Positions 29,779-40,734 of a stretch of DNA of 64,000 nt are shown here, in pieces. The notes under the pieces are model-generated. The model was not told the DNA's origin and searched no databases. It was given only the letters and a program-made list of their open reading frames with translations. Each line of letters begins with the position of its first letter. Positions within the stretch are counted from its first letter, which is position 1. The position numbers and the translations under genes were made by a program. Source of the DNA: Thiobacillaceae bacterium (lineage in GTDB: Bacteria > Pseudomonadota > Gammaproteobacteria > Burkholderiales > Thiobacillaceae); assembly GCA_040080135.1 (NCBI GenBank), contig JBEBIZ010000006.1, positions 16,829 to 80,828 of the forward strand. The letters run 5' to 3'.

Positions 29779-30069
29779 CTTTTTCTCCATCTGTGCGAAC
29801 TATAGGAAGCCTGACTGTTCAGATCAAGGCTCGATCATCCGCTAATCAAAATTGCACTTCAAATGGGAGTCCGGATTGCCTGTTGCACCCCCGTGCTTAC
29901 TTAGCGGCTCGAGCGTATTCAACTTGAGATACGGGAACGTGAAGGGCACTGTTGTGGCGAGGAAAACGATACAATCCGGTAAAGTGGTGTTGGGTAGTGA
30001 AAAGTAATGTGATGCGCGTGTTGTAATATCTGGGCGCAATAATTTCCAAAGATGATTGAGAGGATGACA

Positions 30070-31050
30070 ATGAACGTCGAATTTTCGAAGAAAATGTTTT
30101 TACCCTTGGTGCTCGCAGCAGTGGTCGCCGTATCCGGTTGCGGTGACGACAAAAAGAAAACGGAAGAAAAAGGCGGAACGCAGGTTGCCGCCAAAGTGAA
30201 CGGCACCGAGTTGACCGTACACCAGGTCAACTTTGCATTGCAGCGTATTCCCAATCTGGACAAGAGCAAAGCCAAGGAGGCATCGCTTCAGGTGATTCGT
30301 TCGCTGGTGGATCAACAGGTGATTGTGCAAAAAGCGATGGGCGACAAGCTGGATCGCGATCCAGCGGTGGTGCAAGCGATGGACGCTGCCCGCAGCCAGA
30401 TTCTGGCCGAGGCTTACATGAGCCGCAAGCTGGGTACGCCGGTTGTGCCCAGTGCTGCCGAGGTGACGGATTACTACAACAAACATCCTGAGTTTTTCTC
30501 GCAGCGCAAGGTTTTCCGCCTGCAGGAAATTGCCATCAAGGCGCCCAAGGACAAGTTTGAGGCGATTCGTGCACAGCTCACCGCATCCAAAACGCTGAAT
30601 GAATTTGGTGAATGGCTCAAGGCAGAAAAATATCAGGTCAAGGCTTCGCAAGGTGTGAAAGCATCCGAGCAATTGCCGCCTGCCATCCTGCCCAATCTGC
30701 AAAAAATGCCCGATGGTCAGGCCATGGTAGTGGCGACGCCAGAAGGATTATTGGTATTGGTGTTGGCGGGCTCGCAGGCACAACCTGTCACCGAAGTACA
30801 GGCTAAACCCGCGATTGAGCGCTTGTTGCAAAACCAGAAACGCCAGAAAGCCGCCAAGCAGGAGCTGGATACGCTGAAGGCCGCCGCCAAAATCGAGTAT
30901 CTGGGCGAGTTTGTTGACGCAGGCAAAGCGCCTGTGGCAGCTAAAGAACCTGCTCCAGCAACGCCTGCCCCCGCTGCTGCTGCGGGCAGCAAGGCGGCGC
31001 CTGCTGATCCATCTGCTGACGCAATCAGTAAGGGCATTTCCGGTCTGTAA
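30070..31050 (+). CDS. epsD: EpsD family peptidyl-prolyl isomerase-like lipoprotein
   Basis: Lipobox VSGC, QVAAKVNG.E.TVHQVN and a SurA/rotamase-like region. First gene of the exosortase B locus; alternative starts at 30052 and 30064. Confidence 0.8.
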   Translation: MNVEFSKKMFLPLVLAAVVAVSGCGDDKKKTEEKGGTQVAAKVNGTELTVHQVNFALQRIPNLDKSKAKEASLQVIRSLVDQQVIVQKAMGDKLDRDPAVVQAMDAARSQILAEAYMSRKLGTPVVPSAAEVTDYYNKHPEFFSQRKVFRLQEIAIKAPKDKFEAIRAQLTASKTLNEFGEWLKAEKYQVKASQGVKASEQLPPAILPNLQKMPDGQAMVVATPEGLLVLVLAGSQAQPVTEVQAKPAIERLLQNQKRQKAAKQELDTLKAAAKIEYLGEFVDAGKAPVAAKEPAPATPAPAAAAGSKAAPADPSADAISKGISGL

Positions 31051-33945: not shown

Positions 33946-35334
33946 ATGAACTTTACTCAATTCCTGCTGATTCTGAACGCGCGCAAGTGGGTTATTCTTG
34001 GCGTGCTGCTGTTAATTGTCGCCGTTACTACGGCGGTGAGCCTATGGCTCCCGAAGGAATACACTGCTGCCACTGACCTGATAATTGATTCCAAGAGCAA
34101 GGATACCTTGACCGGTCAGATGCTGTCCTCACAGATGTTTCCTGGGTACATGGCGACCCAGGTCGACGTTATCAAGAGCGCCAAAGTCGCGCAAAAAGTG
34201 GTGTATGAACTGAAGTTGGTGGATAGTCCCGGTGTCCGCGAGCAATTCATGCAAGCGACTAAAGGCAAAGGCACCATCGAGCAGTGGCTGAGTAGTTCGC
34301 TGCTGCAAAGACTTAACGTCGAGCCTTCGCGCGAGTCCAGTGTGATTACTATTTCATTCGATGGATCAGACCCGCAATTTAGCGCCACAATAGCTAATGC
34401 TTTTGCCAAGGCATATATTGAAACTAATCTTGACCTGCGCGTGGAACCTGCCAAGCAAAATGCTACTTGGTTCGACCAGCAGATTGTCCAGTTGCGTGAG
34501 CGAGTAGACCAGGCCCAGCAGAAACTCACTGCCTATCAGCGTGAAAAGAGTATTGTCGAATCCGAAGAGCGGCTGGATGTGGAAACCCGGCGCATGGGGG
34601 ACATCGCGGCCCAGGCGGTCGCGGCACAATCCGCGTTGTTTGATGCCAGCTCACGCACGCGTGAGAGTAGTAGCCTACCCGAGGTGACCAACAACCCAGT
34701 GGTGCAAGGCCTGAAAGCACAAGTGGCACAAGGCGAGGGCAAGCTGGCCGAACTGGCCGGGCGCGTCGGTGCCAACCACCCCGAATTTTTGCGCCTACAG
34801 GCCGAGGTCAATACCTACAAGGCCAAACTCGCCACCGCACTTAGTACGGCTACGCGCGGTATAGGTGCCACCGCCGGCGCGGCGCGCCAGCGTTACAGCG
34901 AACTGAGCGGCGCATTTGATAAGCAAAAAGTCAAAGTGCTGGGGCTAAAGCAGCAGCGCGAAGAAGCCACCCTGCTGGCACGCGATCTGGAAAACGCCCA
35001 GCGCATTTACGATTCCGCCCTGCAGCGCTATGGTCAGAGCCGTATGGAAGCACAGTCCACGCAAACCGACATCTCCGTGCTGAATCTGGCGGTTGCCCCC
35101 ACCGCTCCGTCCAAGCCGCGAGTATTCCTGAGGGTATTTCTCTCGGTATTCGTGGGCGCTTTGCTGGGCGTGAGTGCAGGGTTACTGGTTGAAATGTTGG
35201 ATCGCCGAGTGCGTTCCGGGCAGGACATTGCAGCTGGATTGGGAATACCGGTGTTGGCCGAAGTGACTAAAAAGGGTCGCCGACTGAGGGCGCTGCGCCG
35301 TCTGCTTAGCCGCAACCGCCCCGCCATGGCTTGA
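33946..35334 (+). CDS. epsF: Chain-length determinant (polysaccharide co-polymerase)
   Basis: Two TM segments flanking a coiled-coil, P..PSKP, and C-terminal LDRRVRS..D....G.PVL. Confidence 0.88.
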   Translation: MNFTQFLLILNARKWVILGVLLLIVAVTTAVSLWLPKEYTAATDLIIDSKSKDTLTGQMLSSQMFPGYMATQVDVIKSAKVAQKVVYELKLVDSPGVREQFMQATKGKGTIEQWLSSSLLQRLNVEPSRESSVITISFDGSDPQFSATIANAFAKAYIETNLDLRVEPAKQNATWFDQQIVQLRERVDQAQQKLTAYQREKSIVESEERLDVETRRMGDIAAQAVAAQSALFDASSRTRESSSLPEVTNNPVVQGLKAQVAQGEGKLAELAGRVGANHPEFLRLQAEVNTYKAKLATALSTATRGIGATAGAARQRYSELSGAFDKQKVKVLGLKQQREEATLLARDLENAQRIYDSALQRYGQSRMEAQSTQTDISVLNLAVAPTAPSKPRVFLRVFLSVFVGALLGVSAGLLVEMLDRRVRSGQDIAAGLGIPVLAEVTKKGRRLRALRRLLSRNRPAMA

Positions 35335-35377: not shown

Positions 35378-36265
35378 ATGAATTCATTCACCAGCATTAG
35401 CGAACATGGCAGTATCGTCGAAGCGCCAGCCAGTGTTGGGGCCGAGGCTAATATCGGCAAGTTGCTGCAGGATGCCGGCAAGCTCAAACCGCAAGACATG
35501 GAGCGTGTGCTCAAGCTGCAAAAGGAACGAAACCTGCGCTTTGGCGTTGCCGCGCAACAACTCGGCCTGGTAACCGAGGCCGACATCCAGCAAGCCTTGT
35601 CGCAGCAGTTTGAATACCCCACCATTCCCGCCGCCGAGGCGGGTCTCAGCCCCGAGCTCACCGCTGCGATCGATCCCTACAGCAAGGAGGCTGAAGCGCT
35701 GCGCACGGTTCGCTCAGAACTGTTGCTGCGCTGGTTCAAGGATGGCCGTAGAACCCTGGCAATAGGCAGTGCGCGCGCAGACGAAGGCGCAAGCTATCTG
35801 GCCGCCAACCTGGCCGTTCTGTTTGCGCAAATGGGGCGCAAGGTTCTGCTGGTCGACGCCAACATGCGGCAACCGCGCCAGCACGATATTTTTAATCTGG
35901 GCAAGGGCATGGGGCTGTCCGATTTCTTGGCTGGGCGTGTACCTTCGTTGCAAGTACACGGGATCAAGTCGTTTCCGACATTGGCCGTGCTGCCTGCCGG
36001 GTCACCACCGCCTAACCCGGCAGAATTGCTGGCACGCCCAACGTTCGGTGCACTACTGTCGAGCCTGGAAACCAGATACGACATCATTCTGTTGGATACA
36101 GCACCCGCACAGCGCAGCTCGGACTTCCAGCTGATTGCGGCGCATGTGGGCGGCATGTTGATCGCCAGCCGTCGTAACATCAGCCGTCTTGCGCCTCTGG
36201 CCGAACTGAAAGAGAAAATCACTTTTACCGGTGCTCAAGTGGTTGGCGCAGTGGTGCTGGATTAA
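35378..36265 (+). CDS. epsG: EpsG BY-kinase-like protein with an N-terminal MshEN-like motif and degenerate Walker A
   Basis: EALRT.RSEL, DEGASYLAANLA, VLLVDANMR, PPNPAELL and DIILLDT. Confidence 0.85.
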   Translation: MNSFTSISEHGSIVEAPASVGAEANIGKLLQDAGKLKPQDMERVLKLQKERNLRFGVAAQQLGLVTEADIQQALSQQFEYPTIPAAEAGLSPELTAAIDPYSKEAEALRTVRSELLLRWFKDGRRTLAIGSARADEGASYLAANLAVLFAQMGRKVLLVDANMRQPRQHDIFNLGKGMGLSDFLAGRVPSLQVHGIKSFPTLAVLPAGSPPPNPAELLARPTFGALLSSLETRYDIILLDTAPAQRSSDFQLIAAHVGGMLIASRRNISRLAPLAELKEKITFTGAQVVGAVVLD

Positions 36266-37867: not shown

Positions 37868-37913
37868 TTAATCTACGTCCTTAACCCGATTGCCCACTTC
37901 ATTACACGAAAAC

Positions 37914-38999
37914 ATGATTAAAAAAGCTCTCATCACCGGTGTCACAGGGCAGGATGGCGCCTATCTTGCTGAGTTCCTGCTGGAAAAGGGCTATGAAGTT
38001 CATGGCATCAAGCGCCGCACTTCGCTGTTCAATACCGACCGTATCGACCACCTGTACGAAGGCCCTGAAGTCAAAACGCGTCGCTTCATCTTGCATCACG
38101 GCGACCTCACCGACAGCTCCAGCCTGATCCGCATCATCCAGCAAGTCCAGCCCGACGAAATTTACAACCTTGCCGCGCAAAGCCATGTTGCAGTGAGTTT
38201 TGAAGAGCCGGAATACACGGCCAACTCAGATGCCCTCGGCGCGCTTCGGATTCTGGAAGCCATTCGCATTCTTGGCCTGGAAAAGAAAACCCGTTTCTAC
38301 CAGGCATCCACTAGCGAACTGTTCGGTCTGGTACAGGAAATTCCGCAAAAGGAAACGACCCCTTTCTACCCGCGCAGCCCTTACGCCTGCGCCAAGCTCT
38401 ACGCCTACTGGATTACCATCAACTATCGTGAAGCCTACGGCATGTATGCCTGTAACGGCATCCTGTTCAACCACGAATCGCCTGTACGCGGCGAGACTTT
38501 CGTCACGCGTAAAATCACCCGTGCGCTGGCGCGCATCAAGCTCGGCCTGCAGGATTGTTTGTTCCTCGGCAACATGGATGCCAAACGTGACTGGGGGCAT
38601 GCCAAGGATTACATCGAAATGCAATGGTTGATGTTGCAGCAGGACCAGGCGGAAGATTTTGTCATTGCCACCGGCGTGCAATACAGCGTGCGCGACTTTG
38701 TCGATGCAGCTGCCAAGGAATTGGGAATGGCGATTCGATGGGAAGGTCAGGGCATCGACGAAAAAGGCTTTGATGCCAACGGCAAATGCATCGTATCCGT
38801 CGATGCGCGCTACTTCCGTCCCACCGAGGTGGAAACCCTGTTGGGCGACCCCACCAAAGCAAAAACAAAACTCGGCTGGACGCCGAAGATCAGCTTTGCT
38901 GAGCTGGTGGCCGAGATGGTGCGCGAGGATCTTAAAGCCGCTGAGCGGGATGAGTTGGTGAAGAAACATGGCTACAAAGCCATGGATTACCACGAATGA
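37914..38999 (+). CDS. gmd: GDP-mannose 4,6-dehydratase
   Basis: [26 protein letters not shown] and [15 protein letters not shown]. Confidence 0.97.
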
Positions 39000-39064: not shown

Positions 39065-39367
39065 ATGGATCGTGAAGCCGAAATCAAGATGTTGATTGCC
39101 GGTGTAATGCACCGCAACGCAGGGCGCTTACGTGGTCACAAGGTCTTTTTGTTTGGATCTCGTGCGACGGGTGATGCAAGGTCGCATTCTGATTTTGATA
39201 TTGGCGTGGTTGGCGATGAGCCGCTGTCGCTGAGCGATTTTTATGACATCGAAGATCAATTGGACGAATTGCCCACGCTCTACAAAATAGACTGGGTGGA
39301 TTTCAATCGTGTGTCCCCGCGTTTCAGTGAGCGAGCCGCGCGGCGGATAGAGGTGCTTCATGGCTGA
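39065..39367 (+). CDS. Minimal nucleotidyltransferase (MntA-like antitoxin)
   Basis: LFGSRA.G.....SD.DI motif and KID.VD. Confidence 0.85.
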   Translation: MDREAEIKMLIAGVMHRNAGRLRGHKVFLFGSRATGDARSHSDFDIGVVGDEPLSLSDFYDIEDQLDELPTLYKIDWVDFNRVSPRFSERAARRIEVLHG

Positions 39368-39752
39368 TTCACAGTGGATTGTCGATGATTTTTCGGCAGC
39401 GCTCGCGCAACTGCGTAATGCCCTGGCCGTCCCAGCTGAGCTCGATTTGATCAAGGCGGGCTGCATTCAGTATTTTGAGTTCAGCTTTGAACTCGGCTGG
39501 AAGGCCTGCAAGGTGGTGTCTGCCGAGCAGGGCTTGCCCGATTGCCTGTCGCCCAAAGCCTGCTTGCGCCAGGCGTTTACCTCTGGCTGGATTGAAGATG
39601 AGGCGATATGGCTGGATATGCTCGATGCACGCAATCGTATGTCACATACTTATGATGCACGCAAGGCTTTGGAAATTTACACATCCTTGTCGCAATTTCA
39701 TGAGGCCTTGCAAAAGTTATTGGCCACCCTGCAATCCGTGATTCAAAGTTGA
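39360..39752 (+). CDS. HEPN-domain (HI0074-like) putative RNase toxin
   Basis: [13 protein letters not shown] and RNRMSHTY, which fits R-X4-H-X-Y. Confidence 0.85.
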
Positions 39753-39753
39753 C

Positions 39754-40734
39754 ATGCATAATCAAGCCAAAATCTACATCGCAGGCCATCGTGGCCTGGT
39801 CGGCACCGCCCTCATGCGCAATCTGCGCGATAAGGGTTTTGCCAACTTCGTCACCCGCACGCATGCCGAGCTCGACCTCACCAGCCAAGCCGCCGTCGAA
39901 GCCTTCTTTGCGGCAGAAAAGCCCGATTACGTTTTCCTGGCAGCAGCCAGGGTCGGCGGCATCCATGCCAACAATACCTATCCCGCCGAATTCATACGCG
40001 ACAATCTTGCGATCCAGACCAACATCATTCACGCCGCGTACAAGAACAACGTCAAGCGCCTGCTGTTTCTGGGTTCCAGTTGCATCTACCCCAAACTGTC
40101 GCCGCAGCCGATGAAGGAAGAACACCTGCTGACCAGCGAACTGGAACCGACCAACCGACCCTATGCGCTAGCCAAGATCGCTGGTATCGAAATGTGCTGG
40201 AGTTACAACCGGCAATACGGCACGCAGTATCTGGCTGTTATGCCGACGAATTTGTATGGCCCAGGGGATAACTATCATCCGGAAAATTCGCACGTTATTC
40301 CTGCGATGATCCGTCGTTTTCACGATGCAAAAATCAACGGCGCGCCCAGTGTCGCCATCTGGGGCACAGGTACACCAAAACGCGAGTTCATGTACAGCGA
40401 AGACATGGCCGACGCCTGCGTTTATTTGATGAATTTGCCAGACGAGAAATTTATCCCGCTACTGGGGCAAGACCGTAATGATGGTCTGCCACCGCTGATG
40501 AATATTGGCGTGGGCCATGACCTCACCATTCGAGAGTTGGCTGAAACTGTGAAAGACGTGGTGGGTTATCAAGGCGATATTGAATTCGATGTCAGTAAAC
40601 TCGACGGCACACCGAGAAAATTAATGGATGTCAGCCGTCTGAGCGCTCAAGGCTGGCAAGCCCGCACCGAACTGTCCGAAGGCATCCGTCTGGCCTATGC
40701 GTCAGCGCCATTCAACAGCCAAGAGCATGCCTGA
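39754..40734 (+). CDS. fcl: GDP-L-fucose synthase
   Basis: GHRGLVG, AARVGGI.AN, GSSCIYP, YA.AK and WGTG.P.REF. Confidence 0.96.

Follow-up and report, generated by a model that had tools for sequence, protein, structure and literature searches.

Bacterial tyrosine (BY) pseudokinases form a described class, in which a protein with the BY-kinase fold has neither the catalytic site nor the tyrosine tail and is paired with, or fused to, a type 2 polysaccharide co-polymerase (PCP-2). HfsB, which acts with HfsA in C. crescentus, was described earlier than EcpK, which acts with EpsV in M. xanthus and was characterised in 2025; both pairs work without phosphorylation and a contact-based action has been proposed for them. 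GumC of Xanthomonas is termed a 'pseudo-BY-kinase' in a 2022 review (PMC9800525). The protein considered here, EpsG, is encoded in the window, by which is meant the whole 64,000-nucleotide stretch of contig JBEBIZ010000006.1 of a Thiobacillaceae bacterium that was analysed, where its gene stands beside that of the co-polymerase EpsF in an exopolysaccharide (EPS) cassette linked to exosortase B (XrtB). EpsG is like these pseudokinases in its degenerate fold and its PCP-2 partner, and has in addition, at its N-terminus, a module of the MshEN type that is predicted to bind cyclic di-GMP (c-di-GMP). The overall reading, to which we assign a probability of about 60%, is that EpsG would be a pseudokinase scaffold for EpsF, under the control of c-di-GMP rather than of tyrosine phospho-cycling.

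The likeness to EcpK and HfsB is drawn from their descriptions. In EcpK none of the three Walker motifs survives, whereas in EpsG Walker B persists together with one half of Walker A', and no c-di-GMP module has been reported for EcpK, HfsB or GumC; neither the EcpK paper nor the 2022 review (PMC9800525) mentions c-di-GMP or EpsG. CapA/CapB of S. aureus, Wzc of E. coli and a second kinase of the same genome, which matches TIGR03018, share with EpsG the fold and the EX2RX2R motif, whose role in BY-kinase octamers has been reviewed (PMC9800525). The split arrangement of CapA/CapB, with its membrane PCP, is also that of EpsF/EpsG, and the tail of EpsF resembles that of CapA. Unlike CapB, Wzc and the TIGR03018 kinase, EpsG has no Walker A lysine, has DxN for DxD in Walker A', is without a tyrosine cluster and carries the extra MshEN_N module.

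The described counterparts of that module are found in V. cholerae MshE (5HTL) and in two domains, GSPII-B and GSPII-C, of T. thermophilus PilF, with which EpsG shares two 24-residue motifs, a linker of 5 residues and, as modelled, four helices. The EpsG module differs from these in that it is attached to a BY-kinase-like domain, not to the ATPase of a type II secretion system (T2SS) or type IV pilus (T4P), and in that the MshEN_C subdomain is absent. NfrB of E. coli (PMC8669469) is an MshEN-containing glycosyltransferase that is activated by c-di-GMP and exemplifies direct post-translational control of exopolysaccharide machinery through a module of this type. It is a synthase-type glycosyltransferase with the full MshEN domain, in contrast to EpsG, which would serve a Wzx/Wzy co-polymerase as a partner without catalytic activity.

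The EpsG of Methylobacillus sp. 12S and M. flagellatus KT (Mfla_2024), from the methanolan eps cluster, belongs to the same family, stands among the same genes (EpsD, L, E, F, H and I) and has the same combination of MshEN_N and P-loop. The window EpsG is ~45-50% identical to Methylobacillus EpsG and has Ala at the Walker A lysine position, where Ser is found in an uncultured Methylobacillus relative (L030). Wang et al. 2016 (PMC5013675), in their supplement, describe the Methylobacillus protein as having the MshEN_N subdomain only plus 'an ATPase domain ... different from the T2SSE ATPase', align Mfla_2024 (TIGSLLLRMGKITPEDAERIMRLH-KEKGL-RFGEAAQALGLITEDDIQQVLSRQ) and enter it in Supplementary Table 3, whose first column of proteins, one of two, has it alongside MshE and NfrB; no EpsG construct or binding measurement is seen in the parts of the supplement examined. 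Hence the MshEN_N-EpsG fusion is already published (2016), c-di-GMP binding by EpsG being a prediction there, and NCBIfam already models both the motif (NF053729) and the family (TIGR03029), although the 'tyrosine kinase' in the name of the latter is not supported by the sequences. The window EpsG is an ordinary member of a widespread, known family with a catalogued architecture. A literature search found no paper that joins MshEN with exosortases, PEP-CTERM, chain-length determinants, Wzc, BY-kinases or co-polymerases, and none that connects EpsG to c-di-GMP; a 2026 Curvibacter paper regards EpsF/EpsG simply as chain-length control.

The N-terminal MshEN-type module

EpsG consists of a disordered N-terminus (residues 1-24), the MshEN_N four-helix module (25-77), a conserved linker (78-97) and a BY-kinase-like P-loop domain (98-295). 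The gene and the parts of the module lie as follows.

35378..36265, + strand: epsG, 295 residues, matched by TIGR03029
35450..35521, + strand: MshEN motif I, residues 25-48, NIGKLLQDAGKLKPQDMERVLKLQ, with N25, I26, G27, K35, M41, L45 and Q48 at MshE R9, L10, G11, I19, L25, L29 and Q32
35522..35536, + strand: linker KERNL, five residues between the motifs, from the translation
35537..35608, + strand: MshEN motif II, residues 54-77, RFGVAAQQLGLVTEADIQQALSQQ, with R54, F55, G56, I70, L74 and Q77 at MshE R38, L39, G40, L54, L58 and Q61

The initial annotation, made from the letters of the window alone, had read residues 25-77 (nt 35450-35608) as two 24-residue units joined by a 5-residue linker, and the translation does give NIGKLLQDAGKLKPQDMERVLKLQ-KERNL-RFGVAAQQLGLVTEADIQQALSQQ. 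It had also taken the pair for a tandem MshEN-type match, which the profile searches bear out. In a whole-protein hmmscan, positions 2-53 of the 53 in NF053729 ('cyclic di-GMP-binding domain, MshE-related') align with residues 26-77 (E 2.1e-9). Run over all six frames of the entire 2.7 Mb genome, the same model finds only three sites, of which the one in epsG scores 40.7 bits, above the cutoff, and the other two fall in ORFs of ~570-580 residues. In phmmer the single protein matches PilF (6f8l, 1.5e-4), PilB (9g1w) and MshE (5htl, 0.007) through its residues 23-105. A family profile built from the first 80 residues of 40 diverse relatives and searched against the PDB matches T. thermophilus PilF at E 2.5e-21 and, at E 1.4e-10, the N-domain of V. 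cholerae MshE in its structure with c-di-GMP (5HTL), the alignment to MshE running without gaps across its residues 6-73; models of NfrB match the EpsG N-terminus weakly.

Measured against the relaxed motif RLGxxhhxxGhhxxxxhxxxLxxQ of Wang et al. 2016, which has 11 constrained positions per unit, unit 1 agrees at 9 and unit 2 at 10, the misses being Q31, K35 and Q60, and the 24+5+24 spacing is exact. The equivalents of MshE L10, G11, L29, L39, G40, L54 and L58, mutation of which cut affinity more than 10-fold, are all conserved in kind. An AlphaFold2 model built from a 126-sequence alignment (mean predicted local distance difference test score, pLDDT, 92.6, ~97 over residues 30-70; predicted template-modelling score 0.86) places four helices of the expected lengths at 26-32, 38-51, 55-61 and 67-77; a single-sequence model, with a pLDDT of 36.9, was discarded.

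A phmmer search of 1.84 billion cluster representatives returned 671 EpsG clusters (50% identity) at E <= 1e-30, from Thiobacillus, Nitrosomonas, Methylophilaceae, Oxalobacteraceae, Rhodocyclales and Methylococcales. Of the 671, the best 150 (37-54% identity to EpsG) nearly all align from query residue ~22 on; conservation was counted in 147 of these 150, and profiles were run on 126 diverse relatives. Motif I keeps G27 in 145 of the 147, L30 in 142 and Q48 in 135, and motif II keeps F55 in 146, G56 in 140, L74 in 134 and Q77 in 143, such that the ligand-contact columns are 90-99% conserved and the x positions vary. TIGR03029 matches all 126 relatives and NF053729 matches 125 of them at E <= 1e-3. 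Judged by its sequence, EpsG has at its N-terminus a homologue of MshEN_N, the four-helix module that binds c-di-GMP, in which the glycine, glutamine and hydrophobic positions that contact the ligand are intact, and it is likely that the protein binds c-di-GMP.

The degenerate kinase-like domain

The remainder of EpsG carries the signatures of a BY-kinase, some kept and some lost, at the following positions.

35693..35713, + strand: EX2RX2R ring-oligomerisation motif, E106-A-L-R109-T-V-R112, in helix 103-118, at least 90% conserved in the 126 relatives
35768..35797, + strand: degenerate Walker A, residues 131-140, SARADEGASY, with Asp135 for the first Gly and Ala138 for the catalytic Lys, from the CapB alignment
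35846..35869, + strand: Walker A', residues 157-164, LLVDANMR, with Asn162 as the second Asp, from the CapB alignment
36083..36106, + strand: Walker B-like IILLDTAP, residues 236-243, Asp240 kept, Asp in 133 of the 147 relatives

EpsG residues ~98-292 align with CapB, Etk, Wzc, BceF and VpsO in HMMER (E 1e-26 to 1e-17). In Foldseek the EpsG model finds CapAB and Wzc at E 1e-16 to 1e-17 (CapAB at 4e-17), superposing on the Wzc kinase domain with a root-mean-square deviation of 1.4-1.5 A over ~203 columns; with the full model as query, only kinase-domain matches appear among the matches listed. Ala138 is assigned to the lysine position and Asp135 to the first glycine because CapB SEAPGAGKST aligns with EpsG SARADEGASY, A138 standing over the lysine of GAGKST, and Asn162 is assigned to the second aspartate of Walker A' because CapB LIVDGDMR aligns with EpsG LLVDANMR. 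The changes at the lysine and at the second aspartate of Walker A' had been named in the initial annotation, as had the want of a C-terminal tyrosine cluster in EpsG and EpsF, and all three hold: the translated tails, ...TGAQVVGAVVLD for EpsG and ...RRLLSRNRPAMA for EpsF, contain no tyrosine, the final tyrosine of EpsG being Y234 and its C-terminal end ...GAQVVGAVVLD. Of the BY-kinase hallmarks, therefore, EpsG has the fold and EX2RX2R and is missing the Walker A lysine, the DxD of Walker A' and the tyrosine cluster. It has the traits of a BY-pseudokinase, namely the BY fold without catalytic residues or tyrosine tail and a PCP-2 partner without a kinase domain of its own, and these point very strongly to a protein without tyrosine-kinase activity.

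The lysine column of the 147 relatives reads R in 65, A in 26, C in 13, S in 13, T in 8, K in 8, V in 6 and G in 4, and the C-terminal tail holds no tyrosine or a single one in 145. A further 80 loci from named genomes were found with an 8-sequence alignment; they include Thiobacillus, Methylotenera, Methylobacillus, Methylophilus, Massilia, Janthinobacterium, Pseudoduganella, Nitrosomonas, Methyloversatilis, Dechloromonas and Methylococcales, and neither a Walker A lysine nor a tyrosine tail was found in any of the 80. The MshEN motif and the degenerate kinase site, as read from these sequences, are near-universal traits of the EpsG family and are not peculiar to the window gene.

The two Walker motifs vary together. 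An Arg in the lysine column goes with DxD in 61 of 64 cases and a residue other than Arg or Lys goes with DxN in 61 of 74 in the 147-relative alignment, and the same pairing is seen in the 80 named loci (Arg with DxD 14/14, others with DxN 62/67). The raw Fisher p of 3e-22 for the lysine column against the second Walker A' position, uncorrected for phylogeny, is no proof of co-evolution, because the phylogeny-aware test is underpowered: a quick tree gives 12 and 15 parsimony changes for the two traits and just 2 independent pairs on supported branches, with which a sign test has no power. The pattern suggests that the ATP site may have decayed stepwise, from Lys to Arg with DxD and then to the loss of Arg with DxN, the window protein being at the decayed end. 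The pairing was not found reported in the EpsG literature examined.

The same genome provides an internal contrast to EpsG in the TIGR03018 kinase, because the catalytic motifs and tyrosine tail of the latter are intact. This second BY-kinase, an XrtA-associated autokinase (307 bits), lies on another contig (C57:65979-66542, - strand); it has GEGKS, DAD and DSPP, ends in the tail GADYYYGYYGSYGK (YYYGYYGSY) and has no MshEN motif. From these sequences the organism appears to run a phospho-cycling EPS system beside the lysine-less EpsG system.

A proposed scaffold for EpsF and the alternatives

The partner through which EpsG would act is encoded immediately upstream, with 43 nt between epsF and epsG.

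33946..35334, + strand: epsF, chain-length determinant of the PCP-2 type without a kinase domain, partner of EpsG; TIGR03017, 610 bits against a cutoff of 422.75
35194..35283, + strand: cytoplasmic tail of EpsF, MLDRRVRSGQDIAAGLGIPVLAEVTKKGRR, which resembles the C-terminal fragment by which CapA docks on CapB and activates it, from a PDB search

Only 25-45 residues of EpsF follow the second of its membrane segments, and a P-loop domain is absent. The top PDB match of its tail is the CapA fragment of 4jmp, a weak match (E 0.24, 13.7 bits). In some members of the family the two proteins are joined: fusions of 747-790 residues (representatives P0127, P0189, P0239 and P0267) have Wzz and GNVR domains followed by an EpsG-matching region that starts at about EpsG residue 15-23 and so includes the MshEN_N motif. 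Since the fusions place it after Wzz and GNVR, the module sits at the junction of the co-polymerase and the kinase-like core. As proteins in their own right, the fusions resemble a Wzc-like PCP-2a with a predicted c-di-GMP module.

A scaffold role for EpsG is suggested by the kept EX2RX2R motif, the EpsF-EpsG fusions, the weak match of the EpsF tail to CapA and the precedents of EcpK and HfsB. In the mechanism proposed here, EpsG would be the cytoplasmic partner of EpsF in an XrtB-linked EPS system of the Wzx/Wzy type and would be unable to autophosphorylate as a tyrosine kinase. It may dock as a scaffold on the CapA-like cytoplasmic tail of EpsF, where an EpsG ring could contribute to the oligomeric state that the EpsF ring adopts. 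Binding of c-di-GMP to the N-terminal module, instead of tyrosine phosphorylation and dephosphorylation, would then shift the assembly state, and EPS polymerisation and export would thereby be coupled to the c-di-GMP level of the cell. That signalling by c-di-GMP is present in the organism follows from the 19 ORFs with a GGDEF domain in its 2.7 Mb genome. The chances that c-di-GMP gates EpsF assembly through MshEN_N are about evenly balanced.

Several observations weigh against this reading. A GGDEF gene next to the locus was sought as a sign of local signalling, and none of the 19 is on the window's contig. The literature search found no c-di-GMP binding, ATPase or phosphorylation data for any EpsG and no paper that calls EpsG a pseudokinase. 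The whole-protein NF053729 score is 37.0 bits, 1 bit below the cutoff of 38, and a Pfam scan of EpsG finds no T2SSE_N/MshEN domain and only sub-threshold AAA_31/CbiA. The Pfam miss is not evidence against MshEN_N, because the Pfam model covers the longer N plus C domain; as for the MshEN check across EpsG orthologues that the initial annotation had proposed, NF053729 matches 125 of the 126 relatives and T2SSE_N gives no match in the window EpsG. Motif I opens with Asn, neither Arg, Lys nor Leu, and has Lys as its eleventh residue, and the seventh residue of both motifs is Gln. The deviations at positions 1 and 11 of motif I and the score below the cutoff, together with the documented existence of MshEN-like domains that do not bind (XpsE, PilF GSPII-A), speak for the N-terminal module being a structural or interaction remnant of the GSPII/MshEN_N fold, like the N-domains of XpsE/GspE and PilF GSPII-A, in which case EpsG would be a constitutive scaffold for EpsF that responds to no signal. 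Across the 147 relatives, Arg occupies position 1 in only 42 for motif I (S, T, N, A or Q in ~40%) and in 98 for motif II, and K or R at the MshE I19 position is the family rule (117/147). We nonetheless hold such a remnant to be unlikely. The non-binder XpsE differs from MshE by G11V, I19R, L29R, G40L, L54H, L58C and Q61V (MshE numbering), that is, it has lost the Gly, Leu and Gln contacts, whereas the EpsG family keeps exactly those contacts at 90-99% although it is ~40% identical overall. Moreover, Supplementary Table 3 of Wang et al. 2016 puts Mfla_2024 EpsG in a column with MshE and NfrB that is read here as that of the likely binders. The initial annotation had entered Asn for Arg as a caveat; N25 does stand at MshE R9, but the caveat is minor, since in MshE a change of Arg9, Asp12 or Gln32 alters affinity less than 5-fold, compared with a fall of more than 10-fold for any conserved hydrophobic residue, and PilF GSPII-B binds c-di-GMP at 6 nM despite Lys and Leu replacing both arginines. 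Lys35 is the graver oddity, because I19R is among the changes listed for XpsE, yet it appears tolerable because a GKL-containing motif (...EGKLS..., one of three) occurs in PilF GSPII-C, a domain that binds c-di-GMP at ~0.46 uM. The idea that a helical segment rich in Leu and Gln resembles MshEN by chance can be rejected as having next to no probability: the motif is short and EpsG is inexact against the published relaxed regular expression, but the alignments are full-length and free of gaps with E of 2e-9 to 1.4e-10, and NF053729 finds three genome sites in six frames and 125 of the 126 relatives.

On the side of the P-loop, EpsG might still be a nucleotide-dependent ATPase or switch, or a kinase of some other substrate, for instance EpsF or a glycosyltransferase, with a non-canonical P-loop and modulated by c-di-GMP. 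The family conserves the Walker B aspartate (D240, 133/147), Asp160 (144) and Arg164 (142) of Walker A', and also G137 and Ser139, and EpsG may accordingly bind some nucleotide; the lysine position is Arg in 65 and Lys in 8 of the 147, and a secondary citation of Ayabe-Chujo 2012, weak as evidence, calls EpsG proteins 'autophosphorylating tyrosine kinases'. Set against this are three catalytic-site changes that occur together in the window EpsG (G135D, K138A and D162N), the use of Walker A lysine mutants as the standard kinase-inactive forms for structures (CapB K55M, 2ved; Wzc K540M, 7nhr), the missing tyrosine tail and the missing phosphatase gene, no low-molecular-weight protein tyrosine phosphatase being encoded on the window's contig and the two in the genome both lying on other contigs. 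A catalytic or nucleotide-driven EpsG is hence rather improbable, and a c-di-GMP switch in place of phospho-cycling is plausible as the best-supported reading of these sequences.

The eps cassette and the EpsG family

The gene itself is well delimited. EpsG matches TIGR03029 at 339.7 bits (cutoff 313.8), residues 23-293 covering profile positions 2-272 of 274, a GAGG precedes the ATG by 6-9 nt, and relatives of 80-92% identity, many of them named Thiobacillus, are of equal length. The other genes of the cassette are these.

30052..31050, + strand: epsD, peptidyl-prolyl isomerase; TIGR02925, 272 bits
31050..31745, + strand: CAAX-type protease of the PEP-CTERM system; TIGR03008, 258.6 bits
31730..32998, + strand: epsL, outer-membrane beta-barrel associated with XrtB/PEP-CTERM; TIGR03014, 324.2 bits
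33120..33926, + strand: epsE, periplasmic/outer-membrane polysaccharide export (OPX) protein; TIGR03028, 367.8 bits
36231..37175, + strand: epsH, exosortase B (XrtB); TIGR03113, 420 bits
37175..37867, + strand: epsI, B-type exosortase-associated protein; NF045609, 296.4 bits

All neighbours of epsG (EpsD, the CAAX protease, EpsL, EpsE, EpsF, XrtB and EpsI) score above their curated cutoffs, and the locus is a complete, textbook XrtB-type EPS cassette. The longest XrtB ORF begins at a GTG at 36231, which gives it a 35-nt overlap with the end of epsG; its true start is probably the ATG at ~36270, just past the epsG stop, because the TIGR03113 match starts at ORF residue 33. The order is widely kept: in the 80 named loci EpsF precedes EpsG in 78, XrtB follows EpsG in 62 and the whole order is found in 60.

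Downstream of epsI are genes for a GDP-mannose dehydratase, an epimerase that resembles GDP-fucose synthase, a glycosyltransferase and a protein that resembles flippases. Between the GDP-mannose 4,6-dehydratase (37890-38999) and the epimerase (39754-40734) sits a pair of small genes at 39065-39752 (+ strand), in which a nucleotidyltransferase of 100 residues (Polbeta/NTP_transf_2) overlaps by 8 nt a PF08780 gene of 130 residues, PF08780 being 'nucleotidyltransferase substrate binding protein like'; the pair is of the MNT/HEPN type, which is typical of toxin-antitoxin modules.

EpsG sequences of betaproteobacterial appearance also occur in metagenome-assembled genomes labelled Candidatus Thermoplasmatota archaeon (P0056, 84% identical to the window EpsG), Opitutaceae and Synechococcus sp. 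(L014, L063). The Opitutaceae-labelled EpsG has Walker A and motif strings identical to those of a Methylotenera locus (L011), and the presence of EpsG in genomes with these three labels is probably binning contamination and not real transfer. The 'epsG' of H. seropedicae was rejected as a relative, being an unrelated glucosyltransferase that bears the same name.

For the family as a whole, the sequences of the 671 clusters indicate non-kinases. Tentatively, and at somewhat less than an even chance, it may be that in XrtB-linked systems MshEN_N has replaced the phospho-cycle as the switch for ring assembly, such that c-di-GMP would act post-translationally at the step of chain length and export whilst the ATP site decayed stepwise. 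The work on EcpK and HfsB left unanswered how a dead kinase drives the assembly cycle of a co-polymerase, and a second-messenger module on EpsG offers a concrete answer. If true, this would place direct control by c-di-GMP at the co-polymerase step of the Wzx/Wzy pathway, with relevance to the way in which groundwater, wastewater and host-associated betaproteobacteria form biofilms and flocs.

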